Notes under the pieces: model-generated
The model's input: only the letters and a program-made list of their open reading frames with translations
Databases searched by the model: none
Told to the model about the DNA's origin: nothing
Assembly (NCBI GenBank): GCA_041666885.1
Contig: JBAYGB010000009.1
Coordinates: 1-13,677, forward strand
DNA length: 13,677 bases
DNA from: Patescibacteria group bacterium
GTDB lineage: Bacteria > Patescibacteriota > Patescibacteriia > Patescibacteriales > XYC2-FULL-47-12
Direction of reading: 5' to 3'
In this document: in pieces, positions 3,441 through 13,677 of the stretch
Layout of the letters: every line of letters starts with the position of its first letter
Position numbering within the stretch: the stretch's first letter is position 1
Made by a program: the position numbers and the translations under genes

Positions 3441-3449
3441 AAGTTTAAT

Positions 3450-3540
3450 TATCTCAAATTATTCCAAAAACCAAATTATTTCAAAATCCCGCCTATGGGC
3501 GGGCATTTGAGATAGTTTGGAATAATTTGAAGTTTGATTT
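3450..3540. repeat. Repeat-armed palindromic element: CAAAT/CCAAA-type arm, GC hairpin CCCGCCTATGGGCGGG (3488-3503), complementary TTTGG/TTTGA-type arm. Possible minus-strand terminator for the methyltransferase gene
   Basis: Left arm TATCTCAAATTATTCCAAAAACCAAATTATTTCAAAAT. Right arm CATTTGAGATAGTTTGGAATAATTTGAAGTTTGATTT contains the reverse complements of the left-arm units. On the minus strand the hairpin is followed by ATTTTGAAATAATTTGGTTTTTGG. Confidence 0.6.
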
Positions 3541-3542
3541 TA

Positions 3543-4170: not shown

Positions 4171-4213
4171 TATACAACAAAAAAATTAAAATTAAAAATG
4201 AAACTCTGTATTT

Positions 4214-4329
4214 TGTCATTCCCGCGCAGGCGGGAATCCCTGCCTACCGGCAGGTCAAACTTATTTTATCATTAGATTCCCGCTTTCGCTCGCCTCGTTG
4301 AAGCTCCGGCGAAGCGGGCGGGAATGACA
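4214..4329. repeat. GC-rich palindromic element family 1, copy 1 (TGTCATTCCCGCG...CGGGAATGACA termini, 116 bp)
   Basis: TGTCATTCCCGCGCAGGCGGGAATC at the 5' end and GCGGGCGGGAATGACA at the 3' end. Internal extra hairpin CCTGCCTACCGGCAGG. Sits in the gap between the methyltransferase start and the rnhB stop. Confidence 0.85.
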
Positions 4330-4341
4330 GTAAAAAAACAC

Positions 4342-4953: not shown

Positions 4954-4966
4954 AGACAATATCCAC

Positions 4967-5057
4967 TGTCATTCCCGCGAAAGCGGGAATCTCATGTTTT
5001 GATAATCTTTAGATTCCCGCTTCCTGCCTGCCGGTAGGCAAGGTCGCGGGAATGACA
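4967..5057. repeat. GC-rich palindromic element family 1, copy 2 (91 bp), filling the gap between rnhB and the 126-aa ORF
   Basis: TGTCATTCCCGCGAAAGCGGGAATC ... AGATTCCCGC ... CCTGCCTGCCGGTAGGCAAGG ... GTCGCGGGAATGACA. The internal CCTGCC..GGCAGG hairpin is inverted relative to copy 1. Confidence 0.85.
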
Positions 5058-5062
5058 ATTGA

Positions 5063-5443
5063 TTAAAACGGCCACCAACTTTTCTTCCTCGGTTGCTCTT
5101 TAACAACTTGCGCAAAGGATTCGTTTTTGGCGGCATCAGTTTGTCGTTCCGCCATCGCCTGCAAACGATCAAGTTCTTCTTGCACGAGCGGGCTGTCGTA
5201 TTCGCCCGCGTGCGCGGTTTGCCCTTCGTAGCGGGTTTGGCGCTGGTCCAAATGCAGATTAAAAGTTGTTTGTCCTCCTTGTTCAAAAATATAACAATGA
5301 AAGCGCGGATAAAAATCGCGCGTTAAGCGGCGCGCAAAACTTTCTTGTCCGCTTTGGCGATCATGAATATATGTATAGCCGGCGCGGCGGAGAAAATTTG
5401 CCGGAGATTCTTTTAAGTTTTGGGAAGAAATGGTAAGGCGCAT
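5063..5443 (-). CDS. Conserved-looking hypothetical protein of 126 aa with a basic/aromatic core (FLRRAGYTYIHDRQSGQESFARRL...YPRFHCYIFEQGG...FNLHLDQ)
   Basis: Clean ATG at 5443, protein-like composition, and no competing ORF. I do not recognise the family. The RDFYPRFH segment loosely resembles an Rx4-6H motif, which is weak evidence. Confidence 0.5.
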   Translation of the reverse strand: MRLTISSQNLKESPANFLRRAGYTYIHDRQSGQESFARRLTRDFYPRFHCYIFEQGGQTTFNLHLDQRQTRYEGQTAHAGEYDSPLVQEELDRLQAMAERQTDAAKNESFAQVVKEQPRKKSWWPF

Positions 5444-5494
5444 GTAATTAGTTTATAAAATTACTGTTAAATTGTTTTATTGTTAAATTATTAA

Positions 5495-5630
5495 CCCCTC
5501 CGTCCCGAGCGACTCGGGACACCTCCCCTTATAAAGGGGAGGAATAATGCGGAACAACGACAATGTTAAATCGGCATTTATTCTCCCTCTTTATAAGGGG
5601 GAGTGTCCGACGTCTCGGCGGACGAGGGGG
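5495..5630. repeat. About 136-bp GC/G-tract-rich imperfect palindrome with ~41-bp arms, each composed of two hairpins
   Basis: Arm 5502-5542 GTCCCGAGCGACTCGGGACACCTCCCCTTATAAAGGGGAGG. The reverse complement of arm 5583-5623 is GTCCGCCGAGACGTCGGACACTCCCCCTTATAAAGAGGGAG. The arms are separated by a 40-bp AT-rich centre. Runs of G of length 4 or more lie in and downstream of the right arm (5597-5675). Confidence 0.8.
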
Positions 5631-5708
5631 TCGGGAAACGCCGAAGGCAAAGGGGTTGAGGATTTAGAGGGGGTTAACAATGGAGCAATGGAACAATCTT
5701 ACTATTTG

Positions 5709-6635: not shown

Positions 6636-6671
6636 AAAGATAATTGTTAATTGTGTTAAACATTTAAATAT

Positions 6672-6735
6672 TGTCATTCCCGCGCAGGCGAGAATCTACT
6701 CTTACTCTTAGATTTCCGCCTGCGCGGGAATGACA
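6672..6735. repeat. GC-rich palindromic element family 1, copy 3 (minimal 64-bp form) in the divergent trxB/infB promoter region
   Basis: TGTCATTCCCGCGCAGGCGAGAATC, then TACTCTTACTCTT, then GATTTCCGCCTGCGCGGGAATGACA. The arms are near-perfect reverse complements (24/25). The centre is a TACTCTT 7-mer x2. Confidence 0.85.
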
Positions 6736-6792
6736 GGATAAAAAAATTCTATATCAATATCATATCTTAACTAAACTTTTTAATCAATTTTC

Positions 6793-6830: not shown

Positions 6831-8813
6831 ATGAATATAACCGAATTAGCCAGAAGATTAAAACTCACCACGAGCGAGTTGTTTGACACTTTGCCTCAGC
6901 TCGGTTTTGACATTGGCCGGCGGGCGATTAAAATTGACGACCATATCGCTTATAAAATCGTCGCCAACTGGTCAATTTACAAAAAACAGCTGGACGCCAA
7001 AAAAATCGCCGCGGGTGAAATGGCGGCGCCGGTCGCCAATCCGGCCGACAAAAAAACGATTACCATCCCGCCGCAAATCGTGGTGCGGGATTTTGCCGCG
7101 CTAGCCGGTTTGAACGTCAGCAAGGTTTTGACGGAATTGATGAAAAACGGAATTTTTATTTCCATGAATGAAAAAATAGATTTTGACGCCGCGTCCATTA
7201 TCGGCGCGGATTTGAATTTGGAAGTGCTTTTGGACGAGACGGCCGACATCAGCGGACAAAGCGACAACAAATTAAAAAATATCATGGATAAACAGGACAA
7301 AGCGCATTTGGAAGCGCGGCCGCCGGTAGTGGTGGTAATGGGACACGTTGACCATGGTAAAACCAAACTCTTGGACGCCATTCGTGAAACCAACGTAGTG
7401 GCGGGGGAAGCGGGCGGCATTACGCAGCATATCGGCGCGTACCAAATTGAACAGCGGGGTCAGACGATAACTTTCATTGATACTCCCGGACACGAAGTTT
7501 TTACCGCCATGCGCAGCCGCGGAGCGAAAGTGGCGGATGTCGCGATTTTGGTCGTGGCCGCCGATGACGGCGTAAAACCGCAAACCGTTGAAGCGTATCA
7601 TATTATTGAACAGGCAAAAATTCCGTTTGTCGTCGCGATTAATAAAATTGACAAACCCGAGGCGGATATTGACCGCGTCAAAAGCGAATTGTCCAATCAG
7701 TTGCACATTACGCCTGATGATTGGGGTGGAAAAACAATGTGCGTGCCGATTTCCGCCCGAGATAAAATCGGCATTGATAAACTTTTAGACGCGGTATTGT
7801 TTTTAACCGAAATGGAAAAAGAAAAAATTATCGCGAACCCGAATGCGTCGGCGGTCGGCACGGTGGTGGAATCAAACGTGGATAAAGGCGAAGGGCCGGT
7901 CGCGACGATTTTAATTCAAAACGGCACTCTGCGCGCCGGTGAGATTCTTTGTTTTAACAATGAACCTTTGGGCCGGGTGCGCATCATGAAAAATTATCGG
8001 GGAGAGATAGTGCCAGTTGCCACGCCGGCCATGCCGGTTAGAATATCCGGCTTAAAATCCAGCCCGAGCATCGGCGATATTGTGGAAGTTGTTTGCGCCG
8101 GGGAAACGGCGACCGGCAGCGGCAAAAAAATGCGCTTGGGTAAAATTAAAAAAGGAAATTTTAAATCGGCGACGACGTCAACCGCCGCCTCGGCGGAAAA
8201 TAATGCCAGCGTAAAGTTTGTTAATATTGTTATTCGTACGGATGTCTTGGGTTCCGTTGAAGCGATTGAAGAGGCGTTGGAAAAATTGGGCACGGCGGAG
8301 GTAAAAGTAAAAATAATAAAAAAAGGTTTGGGAAACTTTACGGAAAGCGATGTGCATACGGCCTTCGCGGCCAAAGCCTGCGTTTTGGGATTTAACGCGG
8401 AAATCAATCATGCGGTCAATCTGCTCGCGCGTGAAAAAGGCGTGGAAGTAAAAAGTTTTTCCATTATTTACGAATTGGTTGATTTTATTAAACAAAAAAT
8501 GGAAGTGTTATCCCCCAAACCGGTCGTCAGAAAAGGATTGGGAACGATAAAAGTTTTAGCCATTTTTAAAACCGGCAATAACAGCCAAATCATCGGCGGT
8601 AAAGTGGAAAGCGGATTGATTGAACTTAACGCCAAAATTGAAGCGGTGCGCGATGATATGGTTATCGCGATTGGCGAATTGGTTGGGTTGCAGTCAGGAA
8701 AACAAAGCGTCGTTGATGTTGCGAGCGGGCAGGAATGCGGCGTGGAATTCAAGGGCGAACCGGTGATTAAGTCGGGCGATGTACTGAGAGTATATAAAGA
8801 AATTACGAATTAA
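6831..8813 (+). CDS. infB: Translation initiation factor IF-2
   Basis: IF2_N-like N-terminus. G-domain motifs [12 protein letters not shown] (G1), DTPGHEVF (G3) and AINKID (G4), followed by IF-2 domain II through C2. 660 aa. Confidence 0.95.
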
Positions 8814-8960
8814 GAATTAAGAATTACGAATGAGGAATTAAGAATGCAGAATGCAAATTAAGTTAAAAGTGAAAAGTTAAAATTGTTTGCCTCGCCGCAG
8901 CTTCTAGCGAAGGCGGGTTAAATTGTTTGAAAATTAGAAATTGAAAATTGAAAATTTTTA
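8800..8960. repeat. Degenerate heptamer array (GAATTAA/GAATGCA/TTAAAAG x ~12), then bulged hairpin 8895-8916 flanked by direct repeats GTTAAA(A)TTGTTTG, then (GAAAATT)x4
   Basis: 7-nt periodicity is visible from 8807 to 8889 and from 8929 to 8956. The infB stop codon is part of the first GAATTAA unit. The TTG at 8941 used by the ORF caller for rbfA lies inside the GAAAATT array. Confidence 0.8.
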
Positions 8961-9312: not shown

Positions 9313-10267
9313 CGATTCCGTCTATCAAGAAATAATAAACAAGCTCGCGACCGCTCGCAAAGTTTTTTTGGCCACGCATGAAAACCCGGACGGCGACGCG
9401 GTCGCTTCCATCTGCGCTTTTGCCGAATGGCTTAGACTATTGGGAAAAGAATTTTATCTTTTTTGCGCGGACGAGCCGGAAGACGGCTTTCATTTTTTGC
9501 CGCAAATGGAAAAAATAAATCGGCGGATGGAAGAAATTGATTTTGACGATTTTGATTTGATTATCGTGCTGGATTGCGGCGCTTTGCACCGGACAAAAAT
9601 TGAAACGGAGATAAAGGCAAGCAATTTGGTAATCATCAATATTGACCATCATATTTCCAATAATCAATTCGGCAGCATAAATTTAGTTGACGCCGAAGCC
9701 GCCTCCACCACGCAGTTGTTATATGAACTTTTTAAATTCAGCAAATTGGAAATCAGCCGCCAGCTCGCAAGTTGCATTCTGACCGGCATTATTACCGACT
9801 CCGGCAGTTTCGCTTATGCGGCAACTAACGCCAATACTTTCAGTGTGGCGAGTGAAATGTTGACGCGGGGCGCGAATGTGCGCGCGATTGTAAATTACAC
9901 GGAAAAAAATAAAAATTTAGCCACTTTAAAAGCGTGGGGCTATGCTTTGAGCCAGATGCATTACAATGCCGATTACGATATTGCTTATACCGTCATCACG
10001 CAGGCGGATTTGATAAAATTCAACATCACCAAGCAGGATTTGGAAGGTTTGGCTAGTTTTTTAAATAATTTGAAAGATGCTAAAATAATATTGGTGCTGT
10101 ACGAACTCGGAGACGGGCGGGTAAAAGGCAGTTTGCGCACGAACTTAATCAACGTTGATGTCGCAAAATTAGCCCAAGTATTTGGCGGCGGCGGGCACAG
10201 GAAAGCGGCGGGATTTGAAGTTGAAGGAAAATTGGCGCAGGCGGGCGGTGGTTGGAGAATTGAATAA
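9305..10267 (+). CDS. nrnA: DHH/DHHA1 family phosphoesterase, NrnA-like (oligoribonuclease / pAp phosphatase)
   Basis: DHH motifs HENPDGDAVAS, VLDCG, NIDHH and the DHHA1 motif GGGGHRKAAGF. The ATG at 9305 overlaps the rbfA stop (ATGGCTAA, 8-nt overlap), so the two are translationally coupled. The ORF-table start 9236 is a TTG extension. Confidence 0.85.
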   Translation: MANDSVYQEIINKLATARKVFLATHENPDGDAVASICAFAEWLRLLGKEFYLFCADEPEDGFHFLPQMEKINRRMEEIDFDDFDLIIVLDCGALHRTKIETEIKASNLVIINIDHHISNNQFGSINLVDAEAASTTQLLYELFKFSKLEISRQLASCILTGIITDSGSFAYAATNANTFSVASEMLTRGANVRAIVNYTEKNKNLATLKAWGYALSQMHYNADYDIAYTVITQADLIKFNITKQDLEGLASFLNNLKDAKIILVLYELGDGRVKGSLRTNLINVDVAKLAQVFGGGGHRKAAGFEVEGKLAQAGGGWRIE

Positions 10268-10364
10268 AATAGTTAATCAGTTGAACAGTTAATTAGTTAA
10301 ATAGTTTTTGATATTTTATAACAACTAATTAACTATTCAACTAAGTAACTAATCAACTAAAACT
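10268..10364. repeat. Repeat-armed palindromic element filling the whole nrnA-clpP gap: (AGTTRAWY)x5 left arm, TTTGATATTTTAT centre, (NYAACTAA)x5 right arm
   Basis: Left arm AGTTAATC AGTTGAAC AGTTAATT AGTTAAAT AGTTTTTG. Right arm ACAACTAA TTAACTAT TCAACTAA GTAACTAA TCAACTAA AACTATG. The arms are approximate reverse complements with period 8. Confidence 0.8.
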
Positions 10365-10943
10365 ATGCCTCTAATTCCCACAGTCATTGAAAAATCGCAA
10401 TTCGGCGAACGGGCGTACGATATTTATTCCCGTTTGCTTAAAGACCGCATTATTTTTTTGGGCGAACCGGTCACGGACGTGGTCGCGAACATTATTATCG
10501 CCCAGTTTTTATTTTTGGACGCGCAAGACGGCACGAAAGATATTAAATTTTATATCAACACTCCGGGCGGTTCAGTTACCGCCGGCATGGCGATTTATGA
10601 TACGATGCAATATGTAAAATCGGATGTGTCCACTATTTGCGTCGGCATGGCCGCGAGCATGGGCGCAATTTTACTCGCTTCCGGCGCGGCGGGTAAACGG
10701 TTTGCTTTGCCGAACGCGGAAGTGATGATCCATCAAATCATGGGCGGCGCTGAAGGACAGGCGGTGGATATCAAAATTCAGGCCGAGCATATTTTAAAAT
10801 TAAAAGACAAGTTGAATCAGATTTTAGCCAAACATACCGGCCAAAAAATTCCGACCATTGAGCGCGATACCGACCGTGATTATTTTATGAGCGCGGAAGA
10901 GGCGAAAAAATACGGGATCGTTGATAAAATTATTGCAAAGTAA
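10365..10943 (+). CDS. clpP: ATP-dependent Clp protease proteolytic subunit
   Basis: [16 protein letters not shown], catalytic Ser in GMAASMGA, His in MIHQ, and the C-terminal Asp region. 192 aa. Confidence 0.95.
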
Positions 10944-10969
10944 TTTTGATAAATTTCCATGAATTATGA

Positions 10970-10996
10970 GGCGGCGTCACTTTGATGTCGCCTTTT
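10970..10996 (+). terminator. Rho-independent terminator after clpP
   Basis: 9-bp stem GGCGGCGTC/GATGTCGCC (two G-U wobbles), 5-nt loop, followed by TTTTGTT. Confidence 0.5.
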
Positions 10997-10999
10997 GTT

Positions 11000-11113
11000 A
11001 GATATTGGATATTAAGATATTAGGATATTGCGCTGCGAAAGCAAGAAGTTTATTATGATGATAATACTATTTCCATGCGTTGCGAATATTCAATATCCTA
11101 ATATTCAATATCT
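11000..11113. repeat. Repeat-armed palindromic element, GGATATT family, copy A (clpP-lgt gap)
   Basis: Left arm AGATATT GGATATT AAGATATT AGGATATT (11000-11029). Reverse complement of right arm 11084-11113 is AGATATT GAATATT AGGATATT GAATATT. A 54-bp unique centre separates them. The right arm ends 12 nt before the lgt ATG. Confidence 0.85.
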
Positions 11114-11125
11114 TGTATTACAATT

Positions 11126-12025
11126 ATGAATTTTTTACATTTTTATCTTCCCCAGCCAATTTTATTTCACTTAGGCGTGATAAATGTTTATTGGTACGGT
11201 TTTTTAATGGCGCTGGCGATACTCGCCGGATTGCTCGTGAGCGTGCGCGTGGCCAAGTGGCACGGAGTTGATAAAGAAATTATTTATGATTTATTTTTTT
11301 ACGTTGTTATCGCCGGCTTTATCGGCGCGCGTATTTTTTATATTTTGTATAACCCGGAATATTTTTGGCAGCATCCGTTAGATATTTTTAAAATTTGGCA
11401 AGGCGGAATTGCGATTCACGGCGCGTTGATTTTTGGAATTTTGGCAATAATTTGGTTTGTGCGGCGCATGCCGCCGATAGAGACGTTGCATTGCAACGTC
11501 TCTACGATGAAAAACAATTTTTGGTTGTTGTCCGCAATCATCGCGCCCGGTCTTGCGCTGGGACAGGCGATTGGTCGGTGGGGTAATTATTTTAATCAGG
11601 AATTATTCGGCCGACCGACTGATTTGCCCTGGGGCATTCCGATTGATTTGATAAATCGACCCGCCGGATTTGAACAGTTTACTTATTTTCACCCAACGTT
11701 TTTGTATGAGAGCGTTGGAGATTTAACGATATTCATATTATTATTATTGACGCATTGGTTTTTTGCGCATAATACAAGAAACGGGGAACGAGTAACAAGT
11801 AACGGGCAAAAACCGTTAAATAATCATTCTCTCATTACTCATTACTCATTACTCATTACTTTATATTTATTACTGTATTCTTTATTGCGTTTTATGATTG
11901 AATTTTTGCGCATTGACCCGACCGCCGGCAGTATTTTTGGGGTGCGGGCGACGATGGGGCTGAGTTTGTTAATAGGCGTTGGCGTGTTATTATATTGGCG
12001 CGCCATATTTTATTTAAAAAGATGA
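11126..12025 (+). CDS. lgt: Prolipoprotein diacylglyceryl transferase, carrying an in-frame repeat-element insertion in a C-terminal loop
   Basis: N-terminal VYWYGFLMALAIL and the Lgt signature GQAIGRWGNYFNQELFGRPTDLPWGIPID. Compared with E. coli Lgt, about 23 extra residues (AHNTRNGERVTSNGQKPLNNHSLITHYSLLITLY) lie between the sixth helix and the LRFMIEFLR segment. Confidence 0.88.
   Translation: MNFLHFYLPQPILFHLGVINVYWYGFLMALAILAGLLVSVRVAKWHGVDKEIIYDLFFYVVIAGFIGARIFYILYNPEYFWQHPLDIFKIWQGGIAIHGALIFGILAIIWFVRRMPPIETLHCNVSTMKNNFWLLSAIIAPGLALGQAIGRWGNYFNQELFGRPTDLPWGIPIDLINRPAGFEQFTYFHPTFLYESVGDLTIFILLLLTHWFFAHNTRNGERVTSNGQKPLNNHSLITHYSLLITLYLLLYSLLRFMIEFLRIDPTAGSIFGVRATMGLSLLIGVGVLLYWRAIFYLKR
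11790..11874. repeat. Intragenic repeat-armed palindromic element inside lgt: (AGTAACR)x2, then hairpin AACGG-GCAAAAA-CCGTT, then (CATTACT)x4
   Basis: AGTAACA 11791-11797 and AGTAACG 11798-11804. Centre hairpin 11801-11817. CATTACT at 11833, 11840, 11847 and 11854 (reverse complement AGTAATG), plus degenerate units TCATTCT and TATTACT on either side. The reading frame is preserved and encodes LITHYSLLITLY. Confidence 0.85.
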
Positions 12026-12054
12026 CCGCTTGCTTTTTTTCTTCAACCTTGATA

Positions 12055-12063
12055 TGATACAAT
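12055..12063 (+). promoter_or_regulatory. Extended -10 candidate TGaTACAAT upstream of rpsT
   Basis: TGATACAAT about 86 nt upstream of the rpsT ATG. AT-rich context, so weak evidence. Confidence 0.25.
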
Positions 12064-12095
12064 AAGTTAAAATAATAAATCTAATAAAAATTTAA

Positions 12096-12138
12096 GGCGG
12101 GTAGCGGCAGTCGCGGGATTGCTTCGCTCGCAATGACA
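12096..12138. repeat. Truncated half-copy of palindromic family 1 in the rpsT 5' leader
   Basis: GGCGGGTAGCGGCAGTCGCGGGATTGCTTCGCTCGCAATGACA shares TTCGCTCGC and GCGGGAATGACA-like ends with copy 1. It ends 10 nt before the rpsT ATG and can form a GC hairpin. Confidence 0.6.
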
Positions 12139-12148
12139 GATTAAAATT

Positions 12149-12415
12149 ATGCCTAACATCAAAGCGGCCATGAAAGCCTTGCGCAAAAGCAAAAAAGTAA
12201 AAATAACGAACGACGCCGTTAAAAACAACATTGGACGGCTGATCAAAAAATCGCGGAAAGCGATTGACGCTAAAGCCGATACCGCCAAAGATTTGGTTCA
12301 GCAAACGGTAAAAGCGCTGGATAAAGCGGTGCAGAAAAAAATATTAAAGCCGAACACCGGCAACCGCAAGAAATCAAGATTGATGAAAAAACTCAACCAG
12401 ATAATCGCAAAATAA
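12149..12415 (+). CDS. rpsT: 30S ribosomal protein S20
   Basis: 88 aa, Lys/Ala-rich: MPNIKAAMKALRKSKKVKITNDAVKNNIGRLIKK...LKPNTGNRKKSRLMKKLNQI, which matches the S20 consensus (MANxKSAxKRxR...N...RKKS...). It lies divergent to holA, as in many bacteria. Confidence 0.9.
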   Translation: MPNIKAAMKALRKSKKVKITNDAVKNNIGRLIKKSRKAIDAKADTAKDLVQQTVKALDKAVQKKILKPNTGNRKKSRLMKKLNQIIAK

Positions 12416-12433
12416 CAAAGTTTGTTAAAATAA

Positions 12434-12466
12434 AAAAATCCCCTAGAAATAAGGGATTTTTTATTT
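12434..12466. terminator. Strong bidirectional rho-independent terminator after rpsT
   Basis: AAAAATCCC-CTAGAAATAA-GGGATTTTT followed by TATTT. An A-run upstream and a T-run downstream allow function on both strands (rpsT on plus, holA on minus). Confidence 0.7.
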
Positions 12467-12545
12467 AATATTAGGATATTGGATATTAAGATATTAAATG
12501 CCGCGATTTTGAAAGTTCTGTCGATATCATAATATCCTAATATCC
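12467..12545. repeat. Repeat-armed palindromic element, GGATATT family, copy B (rpsT-holA gap)
   Basis: Left arm AATATT AGGATATT GGATATT AAGATATT. Reverse complement of right arm 12524-12545 is CTGGATATT AGGATATT ATGATAT. It shares an identical 24-mer GATATTGGATATTAAGATATTA with copy A. The centre differs (AAATGCCGCGATTTTGAAAGTTCTGTCG). Confidence 0.85.
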
Positions 12546-12576
12546 AGTCTCTGGCAGAAAAAAGCAGAAGTATTGA

Positions 12577-13593: not shown

Positions 13594-13677
13594 AAATTAA
13601 GAATTAAGAATTAAGAATTAAGAATTAAGAATTAAGAATTAAGAATTAAGAATTAAGAATTAAGAATTAAGAATTAA
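13594..13677. repeat. Perfect heptamer microsatellite (GAATTAA)x11 preceded by AAATTAA, immediately upstream of the holA start; the array runs off the window end
   Basis: 13601-13677 is exactly 11 x GAATTAA with no mismatch. It is the same unit as the degenerate array after infB (8807-8889). Confidence 0.95.

Follow-up and report, generated by a model that had tools for sequence, protein, structure and literature searches.

The 13,677-nt window of Patescibacteria DNA analysed here, which lies within a 15.6-kb contig (ENA metagenome assembly ERZ27249449, k141_900543), contained recurrent repeat-armed elements. In each element, a tandem array of 7-8-nt units (sometimes 10-11 nt) was followed by a variable centre and by the reverse complement of the array, so that a long AT-rich hairpin or cruciform can form. 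The architecture was real, concentrated in certain lineages, and independent of orientation. It comprised dispersed unit families with concerted arms, was replaced in blocks between relatives, and was tolerated in frame within a gene. The elements took up the space left free by selection, namely gaps of every orientation and permissive protein loops. They are tentatively regarded, at slightly less than an even chance, as dispersed, self-renewing repetitive DNA at the DNA level, largely selfish or neutral, which was built by slippage, symmetrised by fold-back, and attracted palindromic insertions.

Tandem arrays were located with Tandem Repeats Finder (TRF), arm pairing was scored with an inverted-repeat finder, and folding was expressed as RNAfold z-scores against dinucleotide shuffles. 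The window contained 23 tandem arrays, 7 of which had an inverted (reverse-complement) partner. When the gaps were dinucleotide-shuffled 200 times with the genes kept, a mean of 9.3 arrays was obtained, and an inverted partner was found in 0 of the 200 shuffles. Further loci were compiled in a first set of 81 loci (1.26 Mb) and a later non-redundant set of 131 loci, of which 123 were non-outgroup (1.5 Mb). The later loci were chosen for GATATT arrays, so that internal controls are meaningful in that set and absolute density is not. Adjacent array pairs in the first 81 loci included 24 inverted and 3 direct partners. In the 123 non-outgroup loci, which held 1,258 arrays, partners were sought within 200 nt. 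At a score of at least 15, the partner was inverted for 100 arrays, direct for 12, mirror for 10, and complement for 20; at a score of at least 18, the numbers were 58, 5, 1, and 10, respectively. Inverted partners were 5-10-fold above all three composition-matched controls, and the recurrence beyond shuffled gaps that an earlier note on this DNA had proposed was borne out.

Periods 7 and 8 dominated, with 121 arrays in 209 kb outside open reading frames (ORFs) and 96 in 1,334 kb inside, which is ~8-fold denser outside. The density of arrays with inverted partners was uneven among the first 81 loci. The source contig had 7 of 22, the syntenic relative L002 had 9 of 25, and L024 had 22 of 40, whereas most other loci were poor in such arrays.

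An artefact of metagenome assembly or of AT-rich low-complexity sequence was an almost negligible explanation for the pattern. The window is a short-read metagenome assembly, and AT-rich sequence yields some chance repeats, as seen in the non-zero mirror, direct, and complement controls. However, the same sequences were obtained from four samples and by various assemblers (MEGAHIT, JGI, Logan), and the excess of inverted partners over the controls and the shuffles argues against it.

Turnover among relatives

A search of GTDB species genomes with the Lgt protein gave 80 loci, nearly all from Patescibacteria (Falkowbacteria, Buchananbacteria, Komeilibacteria, and neighbours). The ClpP homologue matches, through which the closer relatives (L082 onward) were retrieved, bore those same names. 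Records L002, L004, L012, and many others in GTDB were titled 'uncultured Gammaproteobacteria bacterium' despite a Patescibacteria-like Lgt and gene order, and these titles look like placeholder or mislabelled taxonomy. Exact look-ups of the window ClpP and S20 gave no match beyond their own contig.

The relative L002, with an Lgt 60% identical to that of the window, shared the gene order from the 129-aa gene to murD. Most of its gaps contained palindromic or repeat-armed elements, but of other units or other types. The infB-rbfA gap was 151 nt in the window and 4-5 nt in L002 (4 nt) and L092; therefore, the elements were dispensable at any given gap.

The sequences L082-L085 came from four samples and were mutually identical. 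When L082 was compared with the window, identity was 95.0% in infB, 96.8% in rbfA, 92.7% in DHH, and 94.5% in clpP. It was 96.7% in the infB-rbfA gap and 100% in the 95 nt upstream of infB, and 52.6% and about 46% in the DHH-clpP and clpP-lgt gaps, respectively. The sliding-window profile showed four sharp troughs, which corresponded to the two clpP-flanking gaps and to two sites within lgt, where identity dropped to 30-50% with sharp edges. The coding sequence was 93-97% identical right to the trough edges. Four sharply bounded replacements had accordingly occurred within 1.6 kb, with genes ~95% identical.

The clpP-flanking gaps of L082 contained different repeat-armed hairpins, with AAGTTTATA-type units in the DHH-clpP gap and also 11-nt AATAATTAAAC units, and those of L086, L092, and L095 contained other units again (AAATTGTT, TTTATTA, AAGTAAG, and CACGAATAGT types). 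Every replacement was again repeat-armed or palindromic, with fold z-scores of -3.5 to -11 in both gaps in nearly every lineage. The arms within one element were 88-91% complementary, whereas orthologous arms aligned poorly between lineages, a pattern expected from homogenisation within the palindrome.

Strains of the L086 group, which were 0.15-0.25% apart elsewhere, did not differ in any gap element. Hypermutability of the arrays on short time scales was not supported. The elements did not change over short periods, and over medium ones (a few percent divergence) whole blocks were replaced, with the architecture kept each time. In the comparison of orthologous gaps that the earlier note had suggested, a presence/absence difference was found in the infB-rbfA gap and replacement in the DHH-clpP and clpP-lgt gaps, and arm copy number did not vary at 0.15-0.25% divergence. 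Import by homologous recombination was unsupported as the source of the replaced gaps, with flanks 93-97% identical up to the edges, although short tracts from an equally distant donor could still account for them.

The contigs L085, L087, L088, L093, and L095, from several independent assemblies, ended inside or beside the repeat-armed hairpin upstream of clpP, and repeat-armed elements probably fragment short-read assemblies of such genomes. In the trxB/126-aa-gene gap, L086 contained a gene of the 23S rRNA intervening-sequence protein family (PF05635; L086 2080-2457) where the window had a large compound palindrome (5444-5708).

The lgt ORF of the window (11126-12025) was intact and matched the Pfam LGT model with 209 bits, with 279 residues aligned to the 240-position model. 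When aligned with E. coli Lgt (5azb), the window protein had 13 inserted residues, MPPIETLHCNVST, most of which were encoded by the 27-nt palindrome at site 1. Four relatives carried other in-frame GC-rich palindrome families at this site, namely a GTCATTG...CGCAATGAC type in L082, a GTCATTCTCGCGAAAGCGGGAATC type in L095, and CTCCCC...GGGGAG types in L086 and L002. A palindromic repeat in frame in an intact essential gene is a feature of the Rickettsia palindromic element (RPE) type.

The second site of lgt (11730-11880) contained a different tandem-repeat-derived insert in every relative. AATATTN heptamers, the unit of the GATATT family of the window, were found in L082, AACGCAT x5 opposite ATGTTAT x4 in L086, and 24-nt palindromic units in L002. 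In the window, the array at this site encoded a loop and part of a membrane helix. The earlier note had listed the locus 11790-11874 as a gap element with inverted arms, which did not hold: it lay in frame inside lgt, and its reverse-complement score of 7 equalled the direct, mirror, and complement controls. Because relatives carry varied tandem-repeat-derived inserts at that site, the locus is taken as a decayed in-frame member of the repeat-armed phenomenon.

The GATATT 21-mer, GATATTGGATATTAAGATATT, was found in 55 JGI metagenome contigs, which represented 44 distinct loci. About one third of these loci had AATATC arrays within 200 nt, usually with equal unit numbers per arm (4+4, 3+3) and unrelated centres of 7-70 nt, and the remainder included direct arrays starting at a stop codon or finishing at a start codon. 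Chance probably explains the few 21-nt matches inside genes and also the one match in a scan of viral contigs, which lay inside coding sequence with no array. Array conservation at orthologous GATATT loci was uninformative, the loci having been retrieved by requiring the 21-mer.

Other units of the window also recurred elsewhere, with TTGAAAA in 14 loci, TGTTAAAT/AAATTGTT in 10, and AATTAAG in 5, where some chance recurrence is expected for AT-rich heptamers. The AATTAAG family was also present in L024 and L021, and arrays of the AAATTGTT, TTGAAAA, AATTAAG, and AAAGTC types recurred in many Patescibacteria loci. At least ten unit families were found inside single small genomes. L024 had about 6 unit families with 2-4 copies each in 20 kb, and the 15.6-kb contig of the window had 2 GATATT copies. 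In the same 20 kb, a ~240-nt composite element with outer GATTTAA arms and inner AGTTCAA arms occurred four times as homologous whole-length copies, one with a 42-nt GC-rich insertion, and the centres of the L024 AACCATAA family were alike. The statement of the earlier note that all units but the GGATATT pair are unrelated was mostly right inside the window, but across genomes the units formed families.

Also in L024, a tmRNA gene (Rfam RF00023, 107.6 bits, 11537-11940) lay between two CACAGAT-armed hairpins (11448-12053), one of them 13 nt upstream of the gene and the other adjoining its 3' end; the tmRNA and one tRNA were the only Rfam matches on L024. When L103 (5275-5420) was compared with L141, which was 5% different overall, ~150 nt just downstream of a GATATT array contained no difference. 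This stretch, with no Rfam match, could be a structured RNA.

Two GC-rich palindrome families, GTCATTCCCGCG(N4)CGGGAATC... and GTCATTGCGAG...CTCGCAATGAC, were present in four or five gaps. The GTCATTCCCGCG family presumably fits the ATTCCC-N8-GGGAAT pattern of Neisseria dRS3. A 21-nt GC hairpin, CCTGCCTGCCGGTAGGCAAGG, was inserted in the TTGAAAA array of L082 (2195-2215), where the window (8925-8935) had no insert, and the same motif lay within another palindrome of the window (5024-5044). In this respect, CCTGCCTGCCGGTAGGCAAGG was comparable in behaviour to the tiny dispersed repeats that have been reported from Nostoc. A 105-nt GC-rich element in L092 (3155-3259) had 8-nt terminal inverted repeats, CCAGCACC...GGTGCTGG, and a TTTAT duplication, and was missing from L093 (about 46), although ClpP was identical in both. 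This difference is a clean insertion polymorphism of an element resembling a MITE (miniature transposable element with inverted repeats). The GC-rich palindromes are mobile and insert into the AT-rich arrays and hairpins.

Gap position and origin of the elements

At a stricter threshold, 71 elements in 38 loci were used for gap-position counts. Elements occupied 38 of 552 co-directional, 16 of 168 divergent, and 7 of 162 convergent gaps, classes that are approximate because the gene calls are simple ORF calls, and 2 elements lay inside ORFs. Elements lay a median of 11.5 nt from the upstream stop and 12.5 nt from the downstream start. Of the elements in co-directional gaps, 19 folded more stably on the sense strand and 19 on the antisense strand (Wilcoxon p = 0.88); no bias in folding energy was seen between the strands with 25 and then 38 co-directional elements. 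The start-proximal arm was G-poor in 11 cases and G-rich in 5, a bias that was not significant (p = 0.21). The spread over gap types and the absent strand bias therefore argue against a terminator role, and there was no sign of selection on one RNA strand. Intrinsic (Rho-independent) terminators were rejected as an identity for the elements, which had AT-rich stems and no consistent T-run, occupied divergent as well as convergent gaps (16/168 vs 7/162), and stood beside separate canonical terminators. Both E2 and E3, the two GATATT-family elements of the window, were preceded by a separate GC-rich terminator-like hairpin with a T-run. A consensus scan for promoters and terminators was too noisy for use.

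In the favoured reading as selfish or neutral DNA, replication slippage would build the arrays, and the perfect (AATTAAG)x12 and (CTCATTA)x4.3 would be fresh examples. Among the long simple repeats of prokaryotes, heptamers are the most frequent, and slippage of the polymerase has been given as their cause (Mrazek 2007, cited in PMC4679880). Fold-back or template switching in the palindrome, or recursive insertion at the hairpin centre, would copy one arm to the other and keep the arms alike. Hairpins already in place may draw in more palindromes, among them the mobile GC-rich ones that are nested in the elements. Through slippage, arm copying, and hairpin-targeted insertion, a former element site would tend to regain an element of different sequence. 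We infer no dedicated function, and any effect on transcripts would be secondary.

Several points weigh against this reading. A streamlined genome of ~1 Mb is expected to purge useless DNA. Almost all lineages examined again had a hairpin in both clpP-flanking gaps, which could mean selection for the structure and not a mutational habit, and for 4 of 5 lineages the clpP-lgt gap folded clearly better on the sense strand. The GATATT core and its 1-2-nt spacers, conserved around unrelated centres as an exact 21-mer in dozens of places, have the look of a recognition array, although the search by the 21-mer carries ascertainment bias. Many arrays finished a few nucleotides from start codons, like the TAACTGA and Nostoc heptamers proposed as regulatory. 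The absence of copy-number change at 0.2% divergence indicates that slippage is not rapid, and replacement may be a discrete event. The approximate gap classes also count here, and the steps of the proposed mechanism are inferred.

The same observations bear on the possible, although unlikely, reading of the elements as cis-acting RNA structures, which would act on polycistronic mRNAs by stabilising or processing them, or would adjust the initiation of translation, with the start-proximal array as an S1/Csp-type binding platform. Structure persisted through sequence replacement, the sense-strand stability in the clpP-lgt gap points the same way, many GATATT arrays finished 0-3 nt upstream of an ATG, and elements of the window adjoined start codons at 4, 8, and 12 nt, where no Shine-Dalgarno motif was visible upstream of the genes of the window on reading the sequence. 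Literature precedents exist in the TAACTGA and Nostoc heptamer repeats (PMC4679880; bioRxiv 10.1101/2022.06.06.494920). However, divergent gaps, in which no single transcript covers both arms, were equally or more occupied than co-directional ones, and neither the strand stability nor the orientation of the start-proximal arm was significantly biased overall. Orthologous gaps of relatives lacked elements, elements also lay in frame inside lgt, and no Rfam family matched. Arrays of binding sites for sequence-specific proteins on DNA or single strands, serving nucleoid organisation, regulation, or DNA uptake, were considered improbable. The conserved GATATT hexamer core with variable 1-2-nt spacers, the equal unit numbers of the arms around unrelated centres, and the exact 21-mer at 44 loci would suit such sites, and a 7-8-nt period fits binding by OB-fold or cold-shock domains with one protein per heptamer, as cited in PMC4679880. 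Against this, each of the at least ten unit families of a small genome would need its own binding protein, unrelated units were swapped at orthologous sites between strains with ~95% identical genes, a spacing of 7-8 bp does not put the sites on one face of the duplex, and the 21-mer conservation carries the bias already noted.

Conventional MITEs, with reiterated transposase-binding sites in their terminal inverted repeats and moved by a transposase encoded elsewhere, were likewise judged improbable. Dispersed families do exist, the four composite copies and the AACCATAA family of L024 had similar or homologous interiors, the nested GC-rich palindromes showed insertion polymorphism, terminal repeats, and target duplication, and contigs often broke inside elements. 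However, no target-site duplications were found for the AT-rich elements, the GATATT copies had unrelated centres, the replaced segments spanned exactly from stop codon to start codon with no ends of their own, the arms were stacks of 7-8-nt units and not unique terminal sequences, and the 15.6-kb contig contained no transposase gene. In this, the earlier note was right to argue against simple MITE transposition. A further reading, held to be quite unlikely, is an active process, directed by hairpins, through which palindromic cassettes of short tandem repeats are written and overwritten at gene boundaries and in permissive protein loops, by an HUH-type or other recombinase or by replication-coupled fold-back, or else a set of genome-wide recognition sites. 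The four bounded replacements in 1.6 kb at ~95% gene identity, against zero change at 0.2% divergence, make cassette exchange compatible with the data. If it were true, gene gaps and segments of essential proteins such as Lgt would form a rapidly rewritten layer.

Patescibacteria genomes are tiny and gene-dense, and in some lineages a sizeable share of the non-coding DNA consists of repeat-armed structures. If these are selfish or mutational, genome streamlining fails to purge hairpin-forming repeats, and the poor assembly of such genomes, with contigs often ending inside elements, would be explained. If they are functional, they would constitute an unrecognised layer of gene-boundary signalling in a major part of uncultivated bacterial diversity, and the heptamer repeats of Cyanobacteria and Beggiatoaceae, long without an explanation, would be linked to a wider phenomenon. 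The elements are also sharply bounded hypervariable markers for strain typing.

Comparison with known systems

A full-text literature search gave no description of such elements in Patescibacteria or the candidate phyla radiation (CPR). The elements look like a palindromic (inverted) analogue of the short tandemly repeated repetitive (STRR) heptamers of cyanobacteria and not like a new class. The STRR heptamers were reportedly described by Mazel in 1990 and Vioque in 1997. STRR arrays also lengthen helix P12 of RNase P RNA, that is, inside a functional gene. The present elements share with them tandem units of ~7 nt, several families, an intergenic position, and hairpin formation in some cases. 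They differ in phylum, the host being Patescibacteria and not a heterocystous cyanobacterium, and in their AT-rich units, which are not the published ones (CCCCAGT and others). In addition, inverted arrays are the rule in some lineages here and occasional in STRR, periods of 8-11 nt are common here, and the present elements are on record as inserted in frame into a protein and as exchanged wholesale between close strains. Hairpin-forming STRR arrays are known from the hupS-hupL and hoxW-upstream regions, with unknown function, for which transcript stability and translational coupling were proposed (PMC2670836). With these intergenic hairpins and the symmetric arrays of fungal mitochondria (PMC6679062), the remark of the earlier note that the architecture is not a described element class was too strong. 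Nevertheless, none of the compared systems combines inverted arrays as a rule, many unit families, block replacement in close strains, and an in-frame position in an essential gene.

Direct TAACTGA heptamers occur in marine Beggiatoaceae, some Cyanobacteria, and Bacteroidetes (PMC4679880), and TTTTGAA and GAC(C/T)AAT heptamers lie near promoters and start codons in Nostoc (bioRxiv 10.1101/2022.06.06.494920). As in these systems, 2-12 tandem heptamers were located in gaps, where they often overlapped the stop of the preceding gene or ended 0-8 nt from a start codon, and canonical ribosome-binding sites were scarce. The clpP-proximal arm of the window, (C/T)AACTAA, is one base off TAACTGA. However, nearly all arrays of those systems are direct and follow the orientation of the downstream gene (a single inverted case among 170 sets), and one unit dominates each of those genomes, whereas many units, paired inverted arrays, and no significant orientation bias were found here.

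For the Type I variable number tandem repeats (VNTRs) of Lentinula edodes mitochondria, growth has been proposed to occur as a small palindromic unit is inserted again and again at the middle of its complement (PMC6679062), a model that could serve directly for the origin of tandem-repeat arms. They likewise have a (unit)n followed by a (complementary unit)n in mostly intergenic positions, comparable to the arm symmetry and equal unit numbers seen here. Unlike the present elements, which have centres of 7-70 nt and did not vary at 0.15-0.25% divergence, the VNTRs are GC-rich, lie in an organelle genome, lack a unique centre, and vary in copy number between strains and even matings. Repetitive extragenic palindromic (REP) sequences, with BIME and REPIN arrangements and RAYT transposases (PMC3116915), are small extragenic hairpin palindromes that are dispersed, nest in clusters through insertion within or next to older copies, and are selfish non-autonomous DNA, as the present elements may be. 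Each REP is a single GC-rich palindrome, 20-40 nt long, that has a conserved 5' tetranucleotide and is linked to a RAYT gene, whereas tandem stacks form the arms here, and their AT-rich composition does not fit. The GC-rich palindromes GTCATTCCCGCG... and GTCATTGCGAG... of the window are better analogues of REPs.

The in-frame palindromes of lgt resemble RPEs. Integron attC sites were dropped as a candidate for the elements, because the core motifs matched only in part and the genes are housekeeping genes in syntenic order. RPEs were reportedly described by Ogata et al. in 2000 as palindromic repeats in frame at permissive sites of essential protein genes, where a peptide is added and the protein remains intact. 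The sequence families and the host differ, and lineage-specific families share one lgt site here. Quasipalindrome correction by intramolecular template switching, a known replication error in which an imperfect inverted repeat has one of its arms rewritten as a copy of the other (Ripley; Lovett and co-workers), would fit the concerted arms. It is a mutational mechanism and not an element class, and its action here is conjectural.

Features of the window

The genes of the window, assigned by Pfam and ORF calls, began on the - strand with a 258-aa gene, a Band7 gene, a 129-aa gene, a methyltransferase, rnhB, a 126-aa gene, and trxB. They continued on the + strand with infB, rbfA, a DHH/DHHA1 phosphoesterase, clpP, lgt, and rpsT, and returned to the - strand with holA, with murI beyond the window end. 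No match was obtained in a tRNA scan of the window, and no family was matched in an Rfam scan of it. The coordinates of the features are listed in Table 1.

Table 1. Repeat-armed elements, arrays, palindromes, and terminators located in the window; paired z values are RNAfold z-scores.
Feature	Position	Strand	Composition	Arm complementarity and folding	Setting
AT-rich inverted-arm element	3447-3541	none	arms 3447-3487 and 3505-3541, weakly tandem, two ~17-nt units (2.2 copies, TRF score 30); centre, GC hairpin CCCGCCTATGGGCGGG (3488-3503)	15 nt, 100% (3454-3468 with 3516-3530), and 21 nt, 81%; z -7.0/-7.5	whole gap from methyltransferase stop to start of 129-aa gene (both - strand); 6 and 12 nt from flanking genes
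GC-rich palindrome gaps	4200-4330, 4961-5063, 6663-6744, 12100-12140; L001 14170-14275				one is the divergent trxB/infB promoter gap
Compound element	5465-5697	none	tandem arms TGTTAAAT x3.8 (5465-5494) and AACAATGG x2.8 (5676-5697) around a large compound GC-rich palindrome of CTCCCCTTATAAAGGGGAG type (5494-5631)	z -8.8/-9.6	
Heptamer arrays without inverted symmetry	8801-8956	none	by TRF, GAATTAN x6-8 (8801-8862), AAGTTAA x3.3 (8860-8882), TTGAAAA x4.3 (8927-8956); GC-rich 30-nt hairpin (8890-8919) between arrays, 10-nt direct repeat AAATTGTTTG on each side	mirror score 16, inverted 5; z +0.3	infB-rbfA gap; first array overlaps infB stop, last 8 nt upstream of rbfA ATG
Clearest element	10268-10364	none	five AGTTNNNN units (10268-10306), 15-nt centre, five NNNNAACT units (10322-10360); TRF arrays 10267-10306 and 10322-10360, period 8/16	29 nt, 90% (10270-10298 with 10323-10351); z -5.6 on + strand, -7.7 on - strand	entire DHH-clpP gap, from 1 nt past DHH stop to 4 nt before clpP ATG
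Terminator-like GC-rich hairpin and TTTTGTT	10968-10994	+	from sequence reading and fold; absent from consensus terminator scan list		just downstream of clpP, before E2 and distinct from it
GATATT-family element E2	11000-11113	none	four GATATT(N1-2) units (11000-11030), 54-nt unique centre, four AATAT(C/T)(N1-2) units (11085-11113); arrays 11000-11029 and 11085-11111	22 nt, 91% (11000-11021 with 11092-11113); z -7.0/-5.9	end 12 nt upstream of lgt ATG
lgt site 1	11478-11504	+	perfect 13+1+13 palindrome TAGAGACGTTGCA-T-TGCAACGTCTCTA		in frame in lgt
lgt site 2	11790-11874	+	(AGTAAC)x2 and perfect (CTCATTA)x4.3 (11831-11860, 100% matches)	inverted score 7, as controls; z sense -1.9, antisense -4.0	in frame in lgt
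Canonical bidirectional intrinsic terminator	12433-12462	none	AAAAAAATCCCCTAGAAATAAGGGATTTTTT, 13-pair stem and T-run		between convergent rpsT and holA, distinct from E3
GATATT-family element E3	12467-12551	none	four units (12468-12496), 27-nt unique centre, three AATATC units (12524-12551); arrays 12468-12496 and 12524-12545	22 nt, 86% (12475-12496 with 12530-12551); z -3.0/-4.6	
Perfect (AATTAAG)x12	13595-13677	none	TRF score 166, 100%; pure direct array, runs 3 nt beyond window end	no inverted partner (inverted score 7)	holA start to murI stop

Four of the five loci that the earlier note had listed (3450-3540, 10268-10364, 11000-11113, and 12467-12545) stood, with arms that aligned as reverse complements at 81-100%, and the fifth was the lgt locus discussed above. 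At 3450-3540, the hairpin was real, but the tandem nature was weak. A locus missing from that list was the compound element, in which the array at 5465-5494 was paired with that at 5676-5697. The exact stretch common to E2 and E3, described as an identical 24-mer, was shared but measured 22 nt (from 11001 and from 12475).

As had been stated, the elements filled gaps and adjoined start codons. The arrays lay 4, 8, 12, and 1 nt from the start codons of clpP, rbfA, lgt, and holA, respectively. The region after infB (8800-8960) was indeed only a partial match; it did not fold, and its AT-rich arrays were mirror repeats. The direct repeat AAATTGTTTG around its hairpin (8880-8929) looks like a target-site duplication. 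The hairpin downstream of clpP resembles a terminator in sequence.

Outside these loci, the first 3 kb of the window were more AT-rich than the remainder. A near-perfect tandem duplication of ~34 nt (TTATTAAAGTTATTAGCGAAGACATGA...) was located at 1017-1084 near the 5' end of the 258-aa ORF, and a 33-nt inverted repeat without tandem substructure (82% complementary, 29-nt spacer) was located at 2830-2924 in the gap upstream of the Band7 gene.

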